64,000 bases of DNA from a virus. Every line of letters begins with the position of its first letter. The first letter of the stretch is position 1. The notes under the pieces are model-generated. The model saw only the letters and a list, made by a program, of their open reading frames with translations. It did not search any database and was not told the origin of the DNA. Made by a program: the position numbers and the translations under genes. Where the stretch lies: positions 10,613 through 74,612 of the IMG/VR virus record IMGVR_UViG_3300030108_003689. The stretch is one strand, 5' to 3'. This document shows positions 4,790 to 64,000 of this stretch, in pieces.

Positions 4790-5613
4790 TGGCTAACGCA
4801 CTACATCCAGCAGTTCAGTTTAGAAACAACGTCGAGTCCAAGGCTTCTGATTTTCTTCAGACGATGGTAGGCACAGAAGAAGGAGCGCAGGCCGCTGGTC
4901 GAGTTGCGCTGGCATTTAGACAAGCAGCACAGGTCAATGACCGTCTGTACTCTTGTGACCCAGCCTCGGTCGCCCAGGCGGTTGCCTTGTCTGCTATGAC
5001 TGGTCTTATGCCCGGTGGGCCACTGCCTGACGTTTACTTGCTACCAAGAGGCAAAACGCTTCAATGGCAAGTATCCCACCGAGGGTTCGCCAAGCTCGCC
5101 GCCAGGGGAGGAGTCCGACTCCGAACCAAGGCTGTGTTTGAAAGCGACACGTTCCATGTCATCGAAGGAACGGAGCCAAAGCTGGAACACGTACCAGACC
5201 TAAACGCACAACAATCATGGGAATCTCTTACAGCGGTATACGTAGTTGCACACTACAAGGACGGCTCTAAAGACTTTGTCGTCATCCGTAAGGCCGACAT
5301 CGAAAAGCGTAGGGCCAACTCCGATGCCTGGAAGCGAAACAAGAACCAATCCCCATGGGGCCAGTGGCCTATCGAGATGGCACTCAAGACTGGACTTAGG
5401 TATGCGTTTGCTCGCGGCATCGTCCCTATGGATGATACAACTTCCAATGCCTATGATCATGATGGCAAGCAAGATGCCATAGCTGAGGATCTCAAAGTCG
5501 TTGAGATGAATGATATTCCTGAGATGGATTCTATGAATCTGTTGACCGAACAACTCGACGAGCTTTCAGAGGTTAAGGAGAAAGAGAAGGAAGAATCCGT
5601 ACTCGAAGATTAG
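4789..5613 (+). CDS. recT: RecT family single-strand annealing recombinase
   Basis: SCDPASV..A...GL.PG, YLLPRG...QWQVSHRGF, PWGQWPIEMALKT, acidic C-terminal tail; paired with YqaJ. Confidence 0.88.
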   Translation: MANALHPAVQFRNNVESKASDFLQTMVGTEEGAQAAGRVALAFRQAAQVNDRLYSCDPASVAQAVALSAMTGLMPGGPLPDVYLLPRGKTLQWQVSHRGFAKLAARGGVRLRTKAVFESDTFHVIEGTEPKLEHVPDLNAQQSWESLTAVYVVAHYKDGSKDFVVIRKADIEKRRANSDAWKRNKNQSPWGQWPIEMALKTGLRYAFARGIVPMDDTTSNAYDHDGKQDAIAEDLKVVEMNDIPEMDSMNLLTEQLDELSEVKEKEKEESVLED

Positions 5614-53874: not shown

Positions 53875-54411
53875 CTACCAAGGCAAGTCGTGCAGAAAGC
53901 CGTCCTCCTCTTCTTGAAAAACCTCCATCAGTGTCTTGCCCATTCTCTTAGACGCCAAGTCCCACCAGCCCTCCACAGGCTCAGGACCCACTGGACGCAT
54001 ACGCAAACATAGCCTCGGACCACGATCACGCTCTGCATAGAAGTCCTGTATCGTTACCTTGACCGCTAATGAGTCATCTCGTATCACCCCAGCCATCACC
54101 AAGGCATCCAGCGCACATTTACAGATGTTGTCTGCATCTGGCTTAGATCGCTTCCAAATCACATGATCTGGGTCTTTTCGGCGCAATAAACGCTTAGGAC
54201 GATGCGAAAATGCCGCTATTTCGACCTCAACAGGCTCATCAAGTGGCGCTTTTCGCCAAACACTGGTCATCACCATTGCCGCAGAACGCTCCCAATCTGC
54301 AGTCTTTTTAGGCGTATATAGCCTTACGTGGCCGCCAACTGACGTTCCTCTTGGCCTTCCCTTGCCGATTGGGTCACCAGGAACCTCTACCATGTACATC
54401 CATTCACTCAT
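53875..54411 (-). CDS. rusA: RusA family Holliday junction resolvase
   Basis: VPGDPIGKGRPR, YTPKKT..WE, KPDADNICKCALDAL, IRDDS. Confidence 0.9.
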   Translation of the reverse strand: MSEWMYMVEVPGDPIGKGRPRGTSVGGHVRLYTPKKTADWERSAAMVMTSVWRKAPLDEPVEVEIAAFSHRPKRLLRRKDPDHVIWKRSKPDADNICKCALDALVMAGVIRDDSLAVKVTIQDFYAERDRGPRLCLRMRPVGPEPVEGWWDLASKRMGKTLMEVFQEEEDGFLHDLPW

Positions 54412-54727: not shown

Positions 54728-55680
54728 TTGGCCATGTTCTTGTTGCGAAATGTGCTGAAGTGAAACGGATCATGACAATCATTCCATTCAGGCCAAGATA
54801 CGCATCGCAGAATCTCGTCTACCTCGGACAACTCCACACGCACCCATCTGGCCTCGCATCCTTTAGACGCAACAAACGACAGCGCTCTTGGTAGAGAGTC
54901 TGGATCGTTCAAGTACTCGACCTGTGCCCGCTTCCAAAACTCTTGTGTGTGCTTGTGAGTTCTTCTTGTATGAAGCCTCAGATATGGCCCCATCTCTGGA
55001 GTAGGCAAAGACATCGCAACTCTATGATGTCTTTCCAGCATCTTCTTGAGTTGATGGTATTGACCATTCGGCACAACTGGACCATTCGACATGATGTAGT
55101 GATGCAGAAACCTAAAGGTAGTCCATGCCCATCTTGGCTTGTCTGATGGCATAGATAAGTGACCCTTGTACGGATCGTACGTCACACGACGCTTATCTCT
55201 CTCGGTCTGCAGCAAAACAGCAAATGCGTACTTGAATAAACGCCTTGGCGTAGCGAATGCGCCCCTCAGCACAGCAAGCCTACCGCTTGGATCACATATG
55301 GCCACTTGGTAGTCATTACATGTAAGAGACCATTCGCCTGACTCGAGAGCCTTCTCTCTTGCCTCCTCAGCCAACGGCCAGTCAATCTCACCAGACTTGT
55401 AGTTGGTATTCATGCTTGCAGTCTCAACAGGACGCAAGACATCCAGAAACCTTTCCGACAAGCCGCTATATTTGACCACTACGTCACCTGACTTGAGATG
55501 ACTCTGCGACTTTTCAGGTATGGCAGTAAGCCGAACGAATCGAACCTTGTCAGCAGCAACAGGCACAGGAAGCTCTTCTAAATAAGAATCGATTTCATCA
55601 GGGTTTGTTACTGGAACACCAAGAACGCCATCGATTCCCTTGGCTGGAAAACGACGCGCTAAACACACATAGTCAGTCAT
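54718..55680 (-). CDS. Hypothetical protein
   Basis: 320-aa ORF with GGAG RBS directly behind a sigma70-type promoter. Confidence 0.75.
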   Translation of the reverse strand: MTDYVCLARRFPAKGIDGVLGVPVTNPDEIDSYLEELPVPVAADKVRFVRLTAIPEKSQSHLKSGDVVVKYSGLSERFLDVLRPVETASMNTNYKSGEIDWPLAEEAREKALESGEWSLTCNDYQVAICDPSGRLAVLRGAFATPRRLFKYAFAVLLQTERDKRRVTYDPYKGHLSMPSDKPRWAWTTFRFLHHYIMSNGPVVPNGQYHQLKKMLERHHRVAMSLPTPEMGPYLRLHTRRTHKHTQEFWKRAQVEYLNDPDSLPRALSFVASKGCEARWVRVELSEVDEILRCVSWPEWNDCHDPFHFSTFRNKNMAKWN

Positions 55681-55726: not shown

Positions 55727-55933
55727 CCCTGAGCTTTGTAGATTTACTATCACTATCATTTCCCCAGGGGGGGACTTCGTCCCCCCCCAGCGCTGCGAGC
55801 CGCCACCGGCAGCCGCGATGGCCACCGCCTCTCCCCCCGCCGCGACGAGGCGAGGCTCCGCCCTGACCCTGGTCCGGGCCTCCGGTTCACCCCTCGAAAA
55901 ACCCAGGGCAAAGGCGGGTTATGGCGTATGCTT

Positions 55934-56389
55934 CTACATATCGTCACCTCCACAGGGGGGGCAGGCCATGGGGCCAGCACCGCCCACAGGGGGGGCACCG
56001 TCGCCGATGGCGAGGGCACCAGCCACCAGGGCGGCACGGGCACCAGCCACCAGGGCTGAGGCCTTACGGCGGAACCACCGCCCAGCAGCACCAGCCGCCG
56101 CGCGCGCGCCATTAAGAAGTGCAGCCACCACAGGGGGGGCAGCATCAGCCTCGGCACCGTCAACGATGGCGACCGGGGCAACCTCAGCAGCAGGGGCCAC
56201 CGGGGCAGCCTCGGCACCGTCAGCAGCAACCACCACCAGGGGGGAAGCGATGACGACGACGCGAGGGGCACCGGGGACCCGAAGCTGAGGAACCTTGGCC
56301 CAGGCCACGAATCGACCCGTCGCAGCACACCGAGCCCGTTGCCGGGGGGCGGCTGCGTCGAGGTCTGCAAAGGCAAGTGCGAAGGTCAT
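55934..56389 (-). CDS. Ala-rich low-complexity protein, possibly leaderless from a sigma54 promoter
   Basis: In-frame peptide repeats (DGAEA x2, ALVAGA x2); ATG about 2 nt after predicted TSS; overlaps other GC-rich ORFs, so uncertain. Confidence 0.45.
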   Translation of the reverse strand: MTFALAFADLDAAAPRQRARCAATGRFVAWAKVPQLRVPGAPRVVVIASPLVVVAADGAEAAPVAPAAEVAPVAIVDGAEADAAPPVVAALLNGARAAAGAAGRWFRRKASALVAGARAALVAGALAIGDGAPPVGGAGPMACPPCGGDDM

Positions 56390-56400
56390 GGCCCCTTCTT

Positions 56401-56418
56401 ATGCAAGTGCCGTGCCAA
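56401..56418 (-). promoter_or_regulatory. Sigma54 (-24/-12) promoter, leftward
   Basis: TTGGCAC-GGCAC-TTGCAT, a perfect match to TGGCAC-N5-TTGCW. Confidence 0.75.
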
Positions 56419-56466
56419 TCTTTGGCACACCCTGACGGGGGGCTCACCTGGCAGCAAACGGGCCAA

Positions 56467-56811
56467 AAACGCTGTACGCAAAGCCATTTTGGCACAACCA
56501 AGGTATGGCACAGGACTTGCATGGGGGGAGAGCATTTTTCCCTTGCCACGTCAACACCACGACTCGAAACCCAAAATGCTAAACGCTGTACGTCTCTGCA
56601 TTTGTCGTCCTTCGAAAAGTAGACCACGACATGTGTGTCGCGGTTTGGCAGGGTCTTCCAAACGTTGTACGTCTCTGCATCGAAATATTGCGTACAGCGT
56701 TTAGGCCATTCCTGACCACGACATATATGTCACGGTTTGGCATGGACTGTCTGTGCCAAATCAGGCCCCTACTGGTGAGTAGATTTTCAAAACCGCTGTA
56801 CGTCTCTGCAT
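56467..56811. repeat. Dispersed repeats AAACGCTGTACG(TCTCTGCAT) x5 and GACCACGACATRTRTGTCRCGGTTTGGCA x2
   Basis: First family at about 56467, 56581, 56660, 56689-56702 (inverted), 56791; second family at 56622-56650 and 56714-56742. Confidence 0.85.
56506..56522 (+). promoter_or_regulatory. Sigma54 (-24/-12) promoter, rightward 1
   Basis: TGGCAC-AGGAC-TTGCAT, a perfect consensus match. Confidence 0.75.
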
Positions 56812-56820
56812 TGGCACAGT

Positions 56821-56837
56821 TTGGCACGGTATGTGCT
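56821..56837 (+). promoter_or_regulatory. Sigma54 (-24/-12) promoter, rightward 2
   Basis: TTGGCACG-GTAT-GTGCT with exact GG-N10-GC spacing; predicted TSS about 56848. Confidence 0.6.
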
Positions 56838-56847
56838 ATATAGGTTG

Positions 56848-57433
56848 CCGACCGGCGGGACACTCCCCGCCCCGCTCTTTGACATCGTCAACCGGCTCCT
56901 TGCCAACACCAAGGTTGGAGCCGGCGAAGTGGAGGACATCAACACTCGCCCCCTTAGTTGTAGGGGGGTCGGACTCAACAAACAGTCCCCATCATCTGAT
57001 GACGTACCAGAACCGACCGGGCTCAGCCCTACTGCCACGGCAGGAACATCGGGGATTATCGGAAGCCAGACACCGACAGCGACCCCTGAGGGTAACAACC
57101 TCAGGCTGACCGGGTAGACGGCACTCAGTGAGGGGCTGGCCCATGAGAGCAAGCGAGGCCAGGAAGAGTGAGCGCAACAGCCCCTTTGAACGTGGGGTGG
57201 CGAAGACCGGGAGACAAGACCGGGAGCCAAGCACCGATGTCCGCAACCACTTGGGAATACTCCCTCAACACTCAACCACACTGCCGACTTGGAGGCAGTC
57301 CGGGCAACCCTTCACCCGGTCAATGAACTGGTCATCTCAACGAGGGCATCGGCAGCCGTGGCTGCTGCATGCATGGACCGCCAAACGCTCCCCCCTTCCA
57401 CTCCCGGAATGCAGGGGGGGCGCTGCAATCGTC
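56848..57433 (+). ncRNA. Candidate large structured non-coding RNA
   Basis: No credible ORF/RBS; dense local and long-range stems; bounded by a promoter and a hammerhead cleavage site. Confidence 0.5.
56854..56884 (+). promoter_or_regulatory. Hairpin plus boxA antitermination signal (rrn/nut-like)
   Basis: GGCGGG-acactc-CCCGCC followed by CGCTCTTTGACA (E. coli rrn boxA is TGCTCTTTAACA). Confidence 0.55.
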
Positions 57434-57485
57434 CGGTGCTGATGCTGCACCGCTGATGAGGGCCCACAGCAGGGCCGAAACGATT
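57427..57485 (+). ncRNA. Type III hammerhead ribozyme 1 (cleavage after GUC at 57433)
   Basis: Stem III AATCGT/ACGATT; stem I CGGTGC-TGATGCT-GCACCG; core CTGATGA(+G); stem II GGCCC-ACAGCA-GGGCC; GAAA. Confidence 0.9.
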
Positions 57486-57616
57486 CACATAGCCGTCGCC
57501 GGGGCTCCTCCAGCGTCAGACGAGAGTCGAGCCCTGGCGGGCGGCGGACCTCCCCCGGTTCGCTGCTCCGCCGCTCCGACGGCCAAGCACCTGCAACCCT
57601 CAAACCCAGAGAAACC

Positions 57617-57853
57617 AAGGTTCCCCGGTACTTTCCGGGCAGCACCTGGAACCCGAAACCCGACGCCGGATGGCTGGGGGACGGGCTGAACCTGGAAGGG
57701 TCCACTTTCACCTGGAACCCGAAACGCGATTATTGGGCCTCGAACGCCGGATATCGCGTGGCCGATGGTAGTTTCAAACCGGTAGAGAGCGATGCGCCGC
57801 TGACCCCCTACGCACTGAACCTCGCCATATCGCGCCTCTATTCGAGCCTGTGA
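57617..57853 (+). pseudogene. Coding-like frame lacking a canonical start codon
   Basis: 78 codons with high GC3 and TWNPK repeat; AAG where a start is expected. Confidence 0.35.
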
Positions 57854-57860
57854 GCCTCAA

Positions 57861-58055
57861 CCTGCCCCGACCTGCCCCGACCTTTCCCGCCTTTTTTGGT
57901 GGGGTTAGGGCAGCGATTATCCGGGGATGAAGCTCAACTATCATCGAGCAGGGGGTGAGGTTAGGGCAGAAAGCCCCCAACTTTTTCTCTCTCTCCCCCC
58001 TATGGGGTTCTCCCCCTTGCTCTTCTTTCCCTGAGGTTAGGGCAGGTTAGGGCAG
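57861..58055. repeat. Iteron-like GGTTAGGGCA x4 plus inverted variant x2 around a pyrimidine tract (candidate origin)
   Basis: Copies at 57903, 57959, 58035, 58045; CCTGCCCCGA x2 at 57861-57880; CT tract 57981-58000. Confidence 0.7.
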
Positions 58056-58150
58056 CAGCGAATAACCCAGGTACAACCGTTACTTTCAATCAACCCTGAC
58101 GGTCCAACCGTCAACCCCAACCGGGAGCCACTGGCCCCAACGGACACCCC

Positions 58151-58558
58151 ATGACCATGATTAGCAGCAACATCACCGCCCGGCGACCCACCGGAGTCGG
58201 ACTCCTCCCCTGGCAGGCACGCAGTGACGCCTGGACCGCTCAGATTCACTACCAGGGGCGCAGCATGACCGTGCCGTTTTTCACCGGGTCCGCGCATGCT
58301 CACCCCACAACCTGGGACGTGGTCTACTGCCTGCTCTCTGATGCCCACTATGTGATGTGGGGCCAGACCCTTGAAGAGTTCTGCTCGGACTTCGGGTACG
58401 ACCTTGACGACCCCGACAGCCGCGAAGCGAAGGAGGCCACCGCCACGTATCGCCAGACGGTCAAGCAGACTCGCAGCCTCAAGCGGTTGCTCGGCGATGA
58501 CTTCGAGCGGTTCATGGCCATGGACCTTGAAGAAGAACTGACGGCGCACTGCCAATAA
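58151..58558 (+). CDS. Conserved phage early hypothetical protein
   Basis: VPFFTG...PT..DV..CLLSDA...EEFCSDFGYD.D motif; high GC3. Confidence 0.8.
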   Translation: MTMISSNITARRPTGVGLLPWQARSDAWTAQIHYQGRSMTVPFFTGSAHAHPTTWDVVYCLLSDAHYVMWGQTLEEFCSDFGYDLDDPDSREAKEATATYRQTVKQTRSLKRLLGDDFERFMAMDLEEELTAHCQ

Positions 58559-58566
58559 CCCCCACC

Positions 58567-58582
58567 GGGGGCTTCGGCCCCC
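58567..58582 (+). other. C(UUCG)G tetraloop hairpin (repeated at about 58834)
   Basis: CACCGGGGGCTTCGGCCCC appears after two consecutive stops. Confidence 0.75.
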
Positions 58583-58596
58583 ATTGGATACCCACC

Positions 58597-58818
58597 ATGT
58601 CACGTGTTTACGAAGACTCAAACGGCAACCGCCGAGAGCACGACCTTCGCGGCGTGTACGTTATTCACCGCGACGGTGACAAGGTCACCGGCCACTACAT
58701 CAGCCGCAGCCGTGGTCGCTTTCACATTCACAAGTTCACCAACTGCACACTTGAATCGGTGGTTGAGCAAGCCGAGCGTCTCATTCATGAGCCGCCTGTC
58801 TACTTCCTGACCGCCTGA
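58597..58818 (+). CDS. Early hypothetical protein
   Basis: 73 aa, high GC3, flanked by UUCG hairpins. Confidence 0.7.
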   Translation: MSRVYEDSNGNRREHDLRGVYVIHRDGDKVTGHYISRSRGRFHIHKFTNCTLESVVEQAERLIHEPPVYFLTA

Positions 58819-58871
58819 ACCCCAACCCTCACCGGGGGCTTCGGCCCCTACCCCCTCACACTGGAGCTACC

Positions 58872-59309
58872 ATGTCAGCACTCATCAACGATTCCCACAT
58901 CTTCCTCAACTCAATGGCCCGCTTCGAGCCTGAGAGCCCCCTCGAAGAGGCCATGGGCCGCGACAACTTCGTCGAGATGGACCTTTTCAACGCTATGGCG
59001 CTCATGAGCACCAAACAAAAGGACATCCTCAACGAACTGGCGTTCAGGGGTGCCGAGTTCAGCCTTATCCGGGTCGCTCTTGGTAAGGGACGCGAGCGCC
59101 AGGGCACACTGAGGCTGTGTGTTCAGCGCAGCATCGCCTTCGACTCTGCTCACATCGACATCAGCCCCCGTGGCAAGGTGACCGGGATGGTGTTCGGCCA
59201 CCCATGGGCAACCGACAAGCGGAAGGCGCTGGGCGACGTGAAGGTGAAGAGCCTCCGCGACCTGACCAGCCACTACGGCGAGATGGGCTTGGATAGACTC
59301 GATGACTGA
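58872..59309 (+). CDS. Early hypothetical protein
   Basis: GGAG RBS, high GC3. Confidence 0.75.
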   Translation: MSALINDSHIFLNSMARFEPESPLEEAMGRDNFVEMDLFNAMALMSTKQKDILNELAFRGAEFSLIRVALGKGRERQGTLRLCVQRSIAFDSAHIDISPRGKVTGMVFGHPWATDKRKALGDVKVKSLRDLTSHYGEMGLDRLDD

Positions 59310-59352
59310 CAGTCTCTGGATAGTTCCCGAACAACTCAACCATGGAGACCCC

Positions 59353-59706
59353 ATGCACATGTTCTACCTCACGAGCAGGGCCGATAACACCGGCCCCCTG
59401 CTCGACCTGCTGCCGTCGTTTCACCTGAACAACGACACCCCAGACACTTCCCTGGTGGATGCTGGCTGGCGCTATGCCCAGTTCGCCTACACCGGGGCCC
59501 GTGTGCTGGTCCGGTGGAAGCAGAACCGCCGATGGCTCAACGCCTGGAGCAACTTCGTAACCGACTTCGAGGTCCGCCACGTTGACACCGTGGTTGACTC
59601 GGATGGCGTCATCTGGGCTGGCCTGGGTGAGCCTCACAACCTCAAGCTGTATGCACTCGCCGACCGTGTAGCGGAACGCGAGGGCTATCCCATCCTCTCT
59701 AAGTAG
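59353..59706 (+). CDS. Early hypothetical protein
   Basis: ATG 59353 after GGAG (alternative start 59302). Confidence 0.7.
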   Translation: MHMFYLTSRADNTGPLLDLLPSFHLNNDTPDTSLVDAGWRYAQFAYTGARVLVRWKQNRRWLNAWSNFVTDFEVRHVDTVVDSDGVIWAGLGEPHNLKLYALADRVAEREGYPILSK

Positions 59707-59746
59707 AACCCCCCACCCTCTCTCAAACAAACAGGAGCCCATCACT

Positions 59747-60697
59747 ATGGCTAAGTTCGACCCATACAAAGTAATCGCAGACACCCTCATCGCCTCCATC
59801 GAGGCAGGCACCCTCGCATGGCGCTGCGGCTGGAAGAAGCTGGGCGGCGCACTCGTTCGCCCCGTCAGCGGAGGCAGCGGCAAGCCTTACAACGGCATCA
59901 ACGTGCTGCTGCTCTGGGGCTCTGCTCAGGACCAGGGCTTCTGGTCGCCGACTTGGCACACCTACAAGGGTGCCCAGGGCAAGGGCGGCCAAGTCCGCAA
60001 GGGCGAGAAGGGCACCAAGATTGTGAAGTGGCTGTTCCTGCCCTACAAGGACCCCAAGACCGGCAAGCCCCAACTTGACGCCAACGGTGAGCCCATGACC
60101 TATGCACGGCTCAGGCTGTACACGGTCTTCAATGCCTGCCAGATTGAGTGGGCCGAGGGCAGCGAGCACGCCCCAGGGCCACGGCCTACGGTTGAGGACC
60201 ACGATGGCTCTCAAGCTGGCGACAACTTCGAGCAGGCCAAGGTCATCCTCGATGCATGGGCCACCGAGGTTGAGATTCGCCACGGCGGCGACCGTGCCTT
60301 CTACCGTCCATCGGATGACCACATCCAGTTGCCACTGTTCGAGCAGTTCGAGAGTGAGGCCGAGTACTTCTCGACCGCGTTCCACGAGGCCGTCCACAGC
60401 ACGGGCCACAAGTCCAGGCTGAACCGCTTCAAGAAGGAGCGCAAGGGCAGCTACAAGGATGCCTACGCATTCGAAGAGTTGGTCGCCGAGCTTGGCGCAG
60501 CGTTCCTCTGCTGCGATGCTGGTATCAGCCAGCCTGACGAGCCACGCGCCGACCACGCTGCGTACCTGAGCCACTGGCTCAAGGTCCTCAAGGGTGACCC
60601 CAAGGCCATCGTGTCTGCGGCATCCAAGGCCGAGAAGGCCGCCAAGCTGGTGCTCGCCAAGGCTGACGAGGCCGACCAGCAGATGGCCGCCAAGTAA
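59747..60697 (+). CDS. ardC: ArdC-like antirestriction protein (ssDNA-binding domain + zincin MPTase)
   Basis: GKPYNGINVLLLW, W.TYK.A...GGQVRKGEKG, YTVFNACQ, AFY.PS.D.I.LP, FHEAVHSTGH..RL.R, YAFEELVAELGAAFLC. Confidence 0.92.
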   Translation: MAKFDPYKVIADTLIASIEAGTLAWRCGWKKLGGALVRPVSGGSGKPYNGINVLLLWGSAQDQGFWSPTWHTYKGAQGKGGQVRKGEKGTKIVKWLFLPYKDPKTGKPQLDANGEPMTYARLRLYTVFNACQIEWAEGSEHAPGPRPTVEDHDGSQAGDNFEQAKVILDAWATEVEIRHGGDRAFYRPSDDHIQLPLFEQFESEAEYFSTAFHEAVHSTGHKSRLNRFKKERKGSYKDAYAFEELVAELGAAFLCCDAGISQPDEPRADHAAYLSHWLKVLKGDPKAIVSAASKAEKAAKLVLAKADEADQQMAAK

Positions 60698-60769
60698 TCT
60701 GTGAGAGGGTAGCAGTCCGCGCGGCCTGCTTTATCAAAGCCGCGCCCCCTTCAATCAACAGGAGCAATC

Positions 60770-61228
60770 ATGATCGACACTTTCAACCCCCTTGAGCTTC
60801 AGCGCGTCGAGGTCTACTGGAACCTCCACAAGAACCTGTGGAGCATCCGCAGCACAGCGACTGGCCGCCTGATACCGATACGCCCCCACCGTCAGAACCT
60901 ACACCTGATGTTCGTCAAGTGGGTAGTGCAGCCCGCTGGCCGTGCTCGTGTCCTCCGTGAGGGCCGTAAGAACGTCCATGCCTTCGCCCGTGGCTACCTC
61001 GTGCCTGATTGTGGCACCTTCAATCACTTCATGGTGGATGCTGAGGAGTACGCCGACGCTGACCCGCTCATGTACAACCCCTACAAAATGGACACCTTCC
61101 AGACTGTGGGCACCGGCAAGACGGTGCGCGAGTCCGAGAAGGCCTACCTCGACATGAGAGCAGGCCGCCCCCGCGTGTCCGCTGTTCGCAGCACCCCCAA
61201 CCCTTCACCCTTTGCACAGGAAGCATAA
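60770..61228 (+). CDS. Conserved phage early protein
   Basis: VYWNLHK..WSIR, V..AGR.RVLRE.RKNVHAF..G, YNPYK; AGGAG RBS. Confidence 0.8.
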   Translation: MIDTFNPLELQRVEVYWNLHKNLWSIRSTATGRLIPIRPHRQNLHLMFVKWVVQPAGRARVLREGRKNVHAFARGYLVPDCGTFNHFMVDAEEYADADPLMYNPYKMDTFQTVGTGKTVRESEKAYLDMRAGRPRVSAVRSTPNPSPFAQEA

Positions 61229-61503
61229 TGACTGACAACATCTCTTTCGACCGCACCTTCTGCATGAACCGTCACCACAACGACTGGGAGGAAGCGTGGC
61301 AGACGCTCGCCCGCCACTATTCGAACGCCCGCATGGCTGACAAGGTAAATGCCCCTTGCCCCTTCAGTGGCGAGTCCTGGCAGTACATGGGCAGCTACAA
61401 CAAGCCACAGGGCAACGTCCACACGTTCCGCCATCGCTGCCACCCTGGCATGGATGGCCAGCGCGTCAACGTCCGAGTGTTCATCCGGGGAGGTGAGATG
61501 TGA
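61228..61503 (+). CDS. Early hypothetical protein
   Basis: GESWQYMG...HTFRHRCHP motif; TAATG overlap. Confidence 0.75.
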   Translation: MTDNISFDRTFCMNRHHNDWEEAWQTLARHYSNARMADKVNAPCPFSGESWQYMGSYNKPQGNVHTFRHRCHPGMDGQRVNVRVFIRGGEM

Positions 61504-61907
61504 TTGCCCGATTCAAGGACAGCGTGAACGGCGGCGATGTCGTCGTCCAACTGAAGACCGGCCAGACCCTGCGGCACCACCGCTTCACACCCACCGATGA
61601 GGGGTATGACCGCACTATCATCGAGTGGGAATACGACGGGCACACGGTCACCCGTACCTACTTCAATGAGGGACGCGACTGCGACGGCTACATGTCCAGC
61701 CAGTTCGTCCAGTTCTGCCCTGTGGGCAGGCTTCGCTCGGAGACAGTGAACCGCCCGACTGGTGAACGGTGGGAAGCATTCACCGACTACGACGGCACCA
61801 CTGCCCACGAGTGTGTGACCACCTGGGAAGAGCAACCCGGCTGGCCCGCATGGACCGAGGACAGCCACGAGTACTACGACGCCAACGCTGTAGCCGCTGG
61901 CTACTGA
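61500..61907 (+). CDS. Early hypothetical protein
   Basis: GTG after GGAGG; PTDEGY, GRDCDG, D.NA.AAGY motifs. Confidence 0.75.
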   Translation: MIARFKDSVNGGDVVVQLKTGQTLRHHRFTPTDEGYDRTIIEWEYDGHTVTRTYFNEGRDCDGYMSSQFVQFCPVGRLRSETVNRPTGERWEAFTDYDGTTAHECVTTWEEQPGWPAWTEDSHEYYDANAVAAGY

Positions 61908-61930
61908 ACCCCCCCACCCCTGGAGCCCCC

Positions 61931-62026
61931 ATGACTTGGTACTGCTCTCTTTGCAAAACCTTCAATGCCCTTAACATCCTCCGCTGCCGCTGCTGTGGAA
62001 AGCATCGCGACGACAGCCGCTACTGA
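61931..62026 (+). CDS. 31-aa RanBP2-type zinc-finger microprotein
   Basis: MTWYCSLCKTFN...RCRCCG with GGAG RBS. Confidence 0.55.
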   Translation: MTWYCSLCKTFNALNILRCRCCGKHRDDSRY

Positions 62027-62052
62027 ACCCCCCCACTAACTGGAGAACCGAC

Positions 62053-62466
62053 ATGCCATGGACTGAAGAAGAGAAAGAGCAGCACCGTCAGCAAATGCGA
62101 GATGAGTATGCGAGAATCGCCGCAGAACTGAAGGCCGAGAAGGCGCGAGAGTGGGCGACCATTCCGCCCGAAGTTCTCGAAGTTCACAACGCCCTGACCG
62201 ATAACGCCCGGAAGGTCTACACGGACCCGGAAGAGTACGAGGCGATACGCCCGGTCCACACCTACCCAGAGGACTACTGGGAGGGCTCGGAGCGCAAGTA
62301 CACCGGGGCATGGGTCACCGGCAGTAACTACGAGGACGGCAAGGCCGTCATGGTCTGGAAGGACGGCGCGTGGTTCTACCACTCGACGCGGTCTGGTCAT
62401 CGGCGTCCGATGGAGGGCGGCCACGAAGAGGCGCTCGCGAATGCGTCAATCTTCTGGACTGGATGA
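62053..62466 (+). CDS. Early hypothetical protein
   Basis: GGAG RBS, high GC3. Confidence 0.75.
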   Translation: MPWTEEEKEQHRQQMRDEYARIAAELKAEKAREWATIPPEVLEVHNALTDNARKVYTDPEEYEAIRPVHTYPEDYWEGSERKYTGAWVTGSNYEDGKAVMVWKDGAWFYHSTRSGHRRPMEGGHEEALANASIFWTG

Positions 62467-62485
62467 GCGATGGCCCTTCGGGGCC

Positions 62486-62538
62486 GTGTCGGGGCGTGAT
62501 GCTCGCCCCCTGATGATGACCGAGCACGGTCGAAACAC
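62486..62538 (+). ncRNA. Type III hammerhead ribozyme 2 (cleavage after GUC at 62490)
   Basis: Stem III GTGT/ACAC; stem I GGGGCG-TGATGCT-CGCCCC; core CTGATGA(+T); stem II GACCG-AGCA-CGGTC; GAAA; intergenic. Confidence 0.9.
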
Positions 62539-62556
62539 AACCAACAGGAGCCCATC

Positions 62557-62760
62557 ATGAAGTACCCACCCGGAACCATTTTCACCGTCGGCTATCAACT
62601 CGAAAGCTGCTGGATGGTTATCCACACCAGCAAGGTCGAGGCCCGTAGCAAAGAAGAGGCCGTCAACAAGGTTGCGACTGACGTGCCCCGTTCCTACGGA
62701 CACTACGTCGATCGCATCCAAGGCACCCTTGGCCCCAAGAAGTCTGGAGGTGCGGCATGA
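62557..62760 (+). CDS. Early hypothetical protein
   Basis: AGGAG RBS just after hammerhead 2. Confidence 0.7.
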   Translation: MKYPPGTIFTVGYQLESCWMVIHTSKVEARSKEEAVNKVATDVPRSYGHYVDRIQGTLGPKKSGGAA

Positions 62761-63902: not shown

Positions 63903-64000
63903 ATGAGCGATACACACACACAGCCCAAGGTTGACTTCATCCACAATCAAGTAGAGAACAGGCTGCAAAGCCTGCGCTCTCTTCTGGAGGGTGAGTACGC
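63903..64000 (+). CDS. Hypothetical protein, 3' truncated by window edge
   Basis: AAGGAG then ATG AGC GAT...; open to the end of the window. Confidence 0.6.
   Translation, partial: MSDTHTQPKVDFIHNQVENRLQSLRSLLEGEY

Follow-up and report, generated by a model that had tools for sequence, protein, structure and literature searches.

Two putative transcript-processing hammerhead ribozymes flank an ArdC gene block in a marine phage

We analyzed two same-strand RNA elements, termed HH1 and HH2, in a 64,000-nucleotide stretch of DNA (the window) that corresponds to bases 10613-74612 of the 74,612-bp IMG/VR virus record IMGVR_UViG_3300030108_003689. The sequence evidence supports the view that both are genuine type III hammerhead ribozymes under selection for structure. 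They probably act as cis-cleaving hammerheads in one long rightward transcript, which they would process into separately stable, translatable mRNAs. The motifs are present in both elements, and both belong to a family whose members covary in their stems and share a recurring order of hairpin, ribozyme, Shine-Dalgarno sequence and ATG start codon. All coordinates are those of the window unless a contig or another locus is named.

Structure and family of HH1 and HH2

The two ribozymes are listed below with their scores against the Rfam model RF00008 (Hammerhead_3) and against R1, a covariance model built from 13 sequences. Stem lengths are in the order I/II/III, as assigned by the descriptor.

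57427..57485, + strand: HH1, type III hammerhead; predicted cut C57433/C57434; RF00008 32.5 bits; R1 73.3 bits; stems of 6/5/6 bp
62486..62538, + strand: HH2, type III hammerhead; predicted cut C62490/C62491; RF00008 32.9 bits; R1 79.9 bits; stems of 6/5/4 bp

HH1 reads AAUCGUC, CGGUGC-UGAUGCU-GCACCG, CUGAUGA, G, GGCCC-ACAGCA-GGGCC, GAAA, CGAUU. Its stem III pairs AAUCGU with ACGAUU (6 bp, including A15.1-U16.1), stem I pairs CGGUGC with GCACCG around the loop UGAUGCU, and stem II pairs GGCCC with GGGCC around the loop ACAGCA, with an extra G after the core. HH2 reads GUGUC, GGGGCG-UGAUGCU-CGCCCC, CUGAUGA, U, GACCG-AGCA-CGGUC, GAAA, CAC, with a stem III of 4 bp (GUGU/ACAC), stem I GGGGCG/CGCCCC with the same loop UGAUGCU, stem II GACCG/CGGUC with the loop AGCA, and an extra U after the core. 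Both carry a GUC cut triplet and the type III arrangement, in which loops cap stems I and II and stem III has the open end. The invariant hammerhead core is intact in HH1 and HH2 (CUGAUGA ... GAAA, U16.1, and C17 of the GUC opposite A15.1), as are the core-adjacent pairs (C1.1-G2.1 or G1.1-C2.1, and G10.1-C11.1). Thus, every element named in the initial annotation was recovered (the GUC triplet, a 6-bp stem I, the loop TGATGCT, CTGATGA plus an extra G or T, a loop II ending in AGCA, and GAAA), and its observation that all three stems differ between the two ribozymes and yet pair is borne out on the sequence. The segment between the predicted cuts, 57434-62490, is 5057 nt long.

The core is interrupted between A9 and G10.1 by a single inserted base, G in HH1 and U in HH2. 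This insert was treated as a tolerated variant and not as a ground for exclusion from the type III hammerheads.

Comparison with RF00008, as suggested in the initial annotation, gave agreement in alignment and not in score. Model positions 1-54 were all aligned at both sites, with 32.9 bits for HH2 (E 3.4e-4 in a 6-kb search) and 32.5 bits for HH1 (E 8e-6 in a 111-nt search), both under the gathering score of 48.5 bits, which is an operational annotation cut-off and not a structural definition. HH1 and HH2 share the core, the A15.1-U16.1 pair, the GUC triplet and the closed or open state of each stem with the viroid, satellite and genomic members of RF00008, and differ from the model in a loop I that is 6 nt longer and in the base inserted after A9. 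The score falls short because both of these features are counted as insertions. An Rfam scan of the window at the default threshold reported a tRNA only, and HH1 and HH2 surfaced only with E-value thresholds. A third RF00008 hit at 54213-54266 on the - strand (14.3 bits, E 0.18) was taken as noise, and R1 finds nothing there.

A lenient descriptor search of the whole 74.6-kb genome returned exactly two sites, HH1 and HH2. The same descriptor applied to 150 composition-matched random sequences gave 0.027 sites per window, and none of these sequences contained two. In DNA contigs from four marine runs, a 1-nt deletion at 57484 was the only difference within the ribozymes among the differences listed.

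Relatives were sought in viral contigs by a pattern scan (TGATGCT-N6-CTGATGA-N9-25-GAAA) that demanded loop I, the core and GAAA, and did not demand pairing. The scan yielded 89 loci, within which the descriptor recognised 33 complete type III hammerheads; by estimate, the hexamers on either side of the loop would be fully paired by chance in only approximately 0.3% of cases. A second scan, in which loop II was fixed rather than loop I, added members with loop I variants. When applied to the whole genome of the phage, R1 gave the high scores listed above for HH1 and HH2 and found no third copy of the subfamily. The 31 distinct sequences of the subfamily aligned by R1 showed pairing in 94.3% of the cells, as compared to 58% in shuffles and 35-48% with slid partners. 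Changes on both sides of a pair, i.e. compensatory changes, were found at 15 of the 16 pairs and none of 500 shuffles matched the observed covariation, in a set that was partly picked by the pairing descriptor and an alignment that was fitted to the model, both of which favour structure. The covariation is strong across the subfamily, in agreement with the earlier suggestion of selection on structure. An insert after A9 is present in 17 of the 31 members (10 U, 3 A and 4 G), and stem III is just 3 bp long in several. The same pattern gave one or two real hammerheads among the 120 loci listed in bacterial genomes, and on this rough basis the subfamily belongs mainly to phages.

The initial annotation had proposed that UGCU in loop I is complementary to AGCA in loop II. 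Three of the four pairs stand: the GCU at the 3' end of loop I can pair with AGC of loop II and covaries with it across members, which supports a tertiary contact of three predicted pairs, GCU:AGC. Compensatory loop pairs are UCCU/AGGA (L221), GCC/GGC (L091c and L284, independently) and UCC/GGA (L091a), and in two members GGC faces GCU with a G.U pair. The fourth pair, U4:A, fails: all four bases occur at position 4 of loop I, against a fixed 3' A in loop II. This A and the 5' U of loop I are invariant across the members. The 7-nt loop I starting with U and the loop II ending with A are shared with the hammerheads of CChMVd, in which, as in other natural hammerheads, they form a loop-loop motif (PMC2632901). 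In approximately 40% of hammerheads, stem I contacts stem II through Watson-Crick pairs (Perreault et al. 2011, PMC3088659).

Some loci carry two to three subfamily hammerheads on the same strand, 0.3-1.5 kb apart and each before a small open reading frame (ORF), namely L091:1741-3025 (+), L027:3158-3484 (+) and L087:2520-5162 (-).

Layout around the ribozymes and transcript processing

The surroundings of HH2 contain the following features.

62472..62485, + strand: hairpin GGCCC-UUCG-GGGCC, abutting stem III of HH2 and 5 nt from the new 3' end after the predicted cut (from sequence and fold)
62547-62551, + strand: Shine-Dalgarno sequence AGGAG, downstream of HH2
62557-62760, + strand: 67-codon gene, with its ATG at 62557, 19 nt past HH2

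The stop codon of the upstream gene is located at 62464-62466 and the hairpin begins 6 nt further on. The predicted HH2 cut falls in the 90-nt spacer between genes 62053-62466 and 62557-62760, and more small genes follow downstream. This order recurs in the subfamily. A same-strand ORF begins 1-24 nt past the ribozyme in 29 of 34 members, mostly behind a Shine-Dalgarno sequence of the GGAG type. The 30 nt upstream of the ribozyme fold better than 95% of the windows from the same locus in 11 of 30 members, where 1.5 would be expected, although some of the members are related and the number of independent cases is therefore lower. Longer upstream windows reveal further hairpins, and the 30 nt downstream are mostly unstructured. 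HH2 matches the layout fully, with a hairpin upstream and an unstructured Shine-Dalgarno spacer and start codon downstream. A Pfam search of 20 genes flanking subfamily members showed that nearly all are ORFans, with no shared gene identity.

In L089:1320-1480 (-), from IMGVR_UViG_3300025109_000038, the stem I of HH2 is followed by a similar spacer, Shine-Dalgarno sequence and first codons (CAACCAACAGGA.CCCA.CATGAA), and the ribozyme and the translation start may travel as one unit.

HH1 is differently placed, in a long leader with candidate promoters upstream.

56402-56417, - strand: candidate sigma-54-type site, perfect TGGCAC-N5-TTGCA (pattern search)
56506-56521, + strand: candidate sigma-54-type promoter TGGCACAGGACTTGCA, perfect TGGCAC-N5-TTGCA (pattern search)
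56821-56836, + strand: weaker candidate sigma-54-type promoter TGGCACGGTATGTGCT (pattern search)
57388..57424, + strand: GC-rich hairpin with a C6/G7 stem, directly 5' of HH1 (minimum-energy fold)
57486..58150, + strand: approximately 665 nt from HH1 to the first clear gene, apparently non-coding (ORF list, translation and weak codon-position GC signal)

The 45-nt window upstream of HH1 folds at -20.4 kcal/mol. In approximately a quarter of the subfamily members, as is the case for HH1, no ORF precedes the ribozyme, suggesting a leader position.

Hammerhead cleavage leaves a 5'-OH end and a 2',3'-cyclic phosphate end, and these are substrates for joining by RtcB. In the process that we propose, the GC-rich accessory or early region of the phage would be read rightward into one long transcript, which would probably start at the sigma-54-like promoters near 56.5-56.85 kb. 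HH1 would cut during transcription and remove a 5' leader of approximately 0.6-0.9 kb, and HH2 would cut in the spacer described above. The upstream product of each cut would end in a GC-rich hairpin followed by ...GUC with the cyclic phosphate, and the downstream product would begin with a 5'-OH and the compact ribozyme fold, followed after HH2 by the unstructured Shine-Dalgarno sequence and start codon. The net effect would be a splitting of the polycistronic RNA that is free of host RNases, with the stability and translation of each unit independent of the upstream context. We infer the cleavage itself, the single transcript and the effects on stability and translation from the layout. A search between HH1 and HH2 revealed no sigma-70-like promoter on the + strand and no terminator-like site, which is compatible with one long transcript but is no proof of it.

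As a parallel in function and not in kinship, such processing would resemble the cutting of T7 early mRNA by RNase III and the action of the synthetic RiboJ insulator. There, a cut between cistrons gives the upstream product a 3' hairpin and the downstream one a defined, structured 5' end ahead of its ribosome-binding site. The T7 cuts are made by a host enzyme and leave 5'-phosphate and 3'-OH ends, whereas hammerhead cuts are made by the RNA itself and leave 5'-OH and cyclic phosphate ends.

Several observations weigh against this interpretation. Both ribozymes score under the Rfam gathering score, and the covariation was measured in a set chosen and aligned in favour of structure, as noted above. 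GC hairpins of the HH2 type (GGGGGCUUCGGCCCC) are also present at two ribozyme-free junctions in the gene block, and the HH2 hairpin may be a general habit of this phage. HH1 lacks the typical Shine-Dalgarno and ATG partner and is situated midway in a gene-poor stretch of approximately 1.75 kb, and its role may be unlike that of other members. The sigma-54-type promoters are consensus matches only. Finally, a 5'-OH end can destabilise an RNA in hosts with RNase J.

Alternative explanations

The same cuts might serve to lower expression. The ribozymes would then expose 5'-OH ends to an RNase J-type exonuclease and sever upstream genes from downstream ones, limiting the dose or timing of the block that contains the ArdC gene, possibly tuned by folding or translation. 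RNase J1 is the nuclease that acts on the 5'-OH product of the glmS ribozyme. The cleaved glmS mRNA is degraded by cellular RNases and expression is lowered (2019 review), and in HH2 a competing fold is conceivable, since the hairpin can be extended by A62470-U62487 and U62471-G62486 into the 5' strand of stem III. However, the downstream product opens with two stable hairpins that should stop a 5' exonuclease, the Shine-Dalgarno sequence is left free in 29 of 34 members, which fits promotion of the next gene's expression, and no ligand-binding or switch element is visible. We consider down-regulation unlikely. The glmS case also bears on the suggestion in the initial annotation that the released segment is shielded from decay by its 5'-OH end: the ends follow from established hammerhead chemistry, but protection by them would depend on the host and is speculative. 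It is improbable, too, that the hammerheads are mainly portable junction modules that move with gene cassettes as recombination linkers or hitch-hikers, with processing as a side effect. The stem I sequence of HH1 is also found in L025 and L265 and that of HH2 in L089, L263 and L299, which are otherwise unrelated contigs; HH2 and L089 are alike through the Shine-Dalgarno sequence and the first codons with no protein homology detected, and the flanking genes are mostly ORFans of no constant identity. Yet the compensatory covariation indicates selection on the RNA fold and not on DNA identity alone, and the module reading is itself compatible with a processing function. The sole apparent cassette boundary, a metagenome joint from 60709 to 62538 at the end of HH2 in four marine runs, was rejected as an alignment artefact, because the 38 letters in between resemble the phage's own spacer downstream of ArdC and because the 28-nt anchor is a Shine-Dalgarno context that recurs at 59733, 60754 and 62538.

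The most far-reaching proposal, which goes back to the initial annotation, is that a host RtcB-type ligase joins the 5057-nt segment into a circular polycistronic mRNA. In its boldest form, the circle would resist exonucleases and be made early in infection. If true, this would be the first natural ribozyme-made circular mRNA of a double-stranded DNA phage. Two same-strand ribozymes flank the block, the chemistry of the ends is that of RtcB substrates, and circular products were raised as a possibility by Perreault et al. 2011 (PMC3088659); these authors, however, sought circular or spliced products of analogous prophage arrangements and detected none. The 3' end left by HH2 (..GUGUC) can pair with the stem III strand ACGAUU of HH1 only as A-U, C-G and G.U, and the cut ends are unable to rebuild a hammerhead because the stem III strands of HH1 and HH2 differ. 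The end regions are no more complementary than expected (-83.7 kcal/mol; the shuffles averaged -86.5 kcal/mol, and 125 of 200 equalled or surpassed the real ends), and the phage genome contains no match to RtcB, RNA_ligase or 2_5_RNA_ligase2. The segment far exceeds the known ribozyme-made circles in length, and the order of ribozyme, Shine-Dalgarno sequence and ATG across the subfamily favours linear processing. We found no paper in the literature on hammerhead-made circular mRNAs in phages. Circularisation is very improbable, and no result obtained here supports this part of the initial annotation. The view that the motifs are inactive relics or chance look-alikes is scarcely credible. It could appeal to the scores under the Rfam gathering score, the extra base between A9 and G10.1, and the 4-bp stem III of HH2. 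However, the low scores were traced to the one-base insert and to the length of loop I (7 nt), 17 of the 31 members share the extra base and several have a 3-bp stem III, the invariant core positions are all intact, and two sites were observed against a chance expectation of 0.027 per window. Cis-cleaving processing of one long transcript is therefore the explanation that we retain.

Genomic setting and relation to known systems

There are ten ORFs between HH1 and HH2, which encode ArdC, a protein similar to L5 gp82, and eight ORFans. All are located on the + strand with short spacers.

58151-58558, 58597-58818, 58872-59309 and 59302-59706, + strand: four small genes, function not assigned, with a GC content at third codon positions (GC3) of 0.68-0.80
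59747..60697, + strand: ArdC-type anti-restriction gene with ArdcN and zincin-like metallopeptidase domains (PF08401 1.5e-30, PF18818 2.7e-43)
60770-61228, + strand: mycobacteriophage L5 gp82-like gene (PF25735 3.4e-27)
61228-61503, 61500-61907 and 62053-62466, + strand: further genes (ORFs with no family match in Pfam or PHROG)
61931-62026, + strand: 31-codon ORF with a CxxC...CxCC pattern (MTWYCSLCKTF...CRCCGKH...), read from the sequence, with its own GGAG site

None of the four small genes at 58151-59706 has a Pfam match, and the match of gene 58151-58558 to phrog_4273 (unknown function) is the sole one among them. The ArdC gene also matches phrog_7245, an anti-restriction protein, at 1.7e-81. 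The ORF at 61931-62026 may encode a mini zinc-ribbon protein of a kind easily missed in annotation. A tblastn search with 12 proteins of the block against all hammerhead-bearing loci gave nothing, nor did a search for related loci with two block proteins.

The junctions within the block show several recurring elements. A C-rich motif, GAACCCCCCCAC, is common to the junctions at 58557-58581, 58824-58848, 59703-59720, 61905-61925 and 62022-62040. The hairpins at the two ribozyme-free junctions mentioned above are near-identical copies of GGGGGCUUCGGCCCC, and the Shine-Dalgarno contexts AACAGGAGCNNATCATG recur at 59733, 60754 and 62538. The block junctions look like standardised intergenic modules.

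Upstream of the block, no convincing coding signal was seen over the approximately 1.75 kb of 56400-58150. Such a gap is unusual in a phage, and the region may serve as an origin, in packaging or in protein binding. It contains three CACCTGGAACCCGAAAC repeats at 57588-57729, four GGTTAGGGCAG repeats at 57898-58055, and inverted CTGCCCCGACC copies at 57862-57885. The promoter region at 56400-56840 holds four AAACGCTGTACGTCTCTGCATT copies, one inverted copy and extra TGGCA half-sites, and might be a divergent promoter region that depends on an enhancer. The segment 56851-56884, a short way downstream of the third, weaker sigma-54-like site, holds a hairpin GGCGGG-ACACU-CCCCGCC followed by CGCTCTTTGACA at 56873-56884, which resembles rrn boxA and may act in antitermination on the transcript bearing both ribozymes.

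A frame of 137 codons is open over 57443-57853, beginning inside HH1, with no ATG, GTG or TTG before 57758. The 131-aa database protein P0002 is 90% identical to this frame. Its first 50 residues are identical and its last 80 contain 8 mostly non-conservative changes. P0002 is called from the AUG that forms part of the CUGAUGA core in the HH1 of a relative, and the gene call is probably a gene-caller artefact, because the core AUG is in a different frame in the window. The stretch may encode a small protein or be a conserved RNA. Judging from the first codons of P0002, the loop II of the relative's HH1 would be 2 nt shorter, an AGCA tetraloop.

The source of the sequence is an uncultured, lytic-looking 74.6-kb marine phage. 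The record is rated complete by CheckV. Its final 98 bases (window 63903-64000) are a copy of contig bases 2-99, and the nominally 'linear' record is thus a circular or terminally redundant assembly; the gene from 63771 onward runs on across the contig junction. In a PHROG search, the genes for terminase, the major head protein and the internal virion protein were all found on the - strand. A 3434-aa ORF lies alongside the structural genes on the - strand and has no PHROG match at 1e-5. The label N4-like, suspected from this ORF, was dropped, as there was no PHROG match and the similarity of a 1192-aa neighbour to known phages is confined to a peptidase domain. No close relative was found among known phages, and the sole blastn match to phage records is a 130-nt stretch of ArdC in Caulobacter phages. 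DNA of this phage or of near relatives is present in marine metagenomes from several studies.

Both ribozymes are located in a GC-rich part of the genome, on the strand opposite to the structural genes. The GC content rises from approximately 49% to 57-62% near window position 55400 and remains high through the contig junction to approximately contig base 5000. This stretch of approximately 13 kb spans the small-gene region, and the step suggests a different origin of, or different constraints on, that part of the phage. A - strand ORF of 206 codons (55756-56376, GC3 0.82), flanked by the last structural gene and the promoter region, is packed with CACAGGGGGGGCA-based repeats (G7 runs).

Perreault et al. 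2011 (PLoS Comput Biol, PMC3088659) described clusters of same-strand hammerheads around one or a few genes of variable identity in prophages, including a set that surrounds the anti-restriction gene ardA in Agrobacterium tumefaciens, and proposed that they divide long phage transcripts into mRNAs the length of a gene or operon. Cleavage was observed in vitro for analogous arrangements and in vivo for the set around ardA (PMC3088659). The arrangement of HH1 and HH2 has thus been known from phage DNA since 2011, and the pair alone adds little. As in these clusters, two same-strand hammerheads bracket genes in phage DNA near an anti-restriction gene, here ArdC. Unlike in these clusters, the block is longer (5057 nt with ten ORFs), HH1 is situated in a long leader and not directly before a gene, and the source is not a prophage but a lytic-looking phage known from its sequence.

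The comparison with viroids, satellites and retrozymes is more distant. Their flanking ribozymes repeat one sequence, the cut ends rebuild the hammerhead, and the circles are small (PMC7229834). The likeness consists in cuts on both sides of a segment, with 5'-OH and 2',3'-cyclic phosphate ends that can be joined by an RtcB-type or tRNA ligase. Here, in contrast, the two stem IIIs are unlike each other, the ends lack complementarity, and the RNA is a protein-coding one of 5 kb. HH1 and HH2 also differ from the viroid and satellite members of RF00008 in that they are encoded in DNA and lie within an mRNA, outside any circular RNA replicon. As a precedent for the base inserted in their core, one viroid hammerhead also has an extra core nucleotide (De la Pena and Flores 2001, reference 17 of PMC2632901).

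The role of bacterial and phage hammerheads is still largely elusive according to a 2019 review. Against this background the additions made here are modest: the definition of a subfamily that lies under the Rfam cut-off, a 3-bp kissing contact with covariation, and the layout of hairpin, ribozyme and Shine-Dalgarno sequence. The subfamily is characterized by a 7-nt loop I, the GCU:AGC contact and an optional base after A9, and at approximately 16 bits under the cut-off it goes unreported by routine annotation. ArdC provides a second link between hammerheads and anti-restriction, after ardA, which may mean a need for fast, context-independent expression after DNA entry. The order of hairpin, ribozyme and free Shine-Dalgarno and start region offers a concrete model, in which host-independent processing would stabilise both products.

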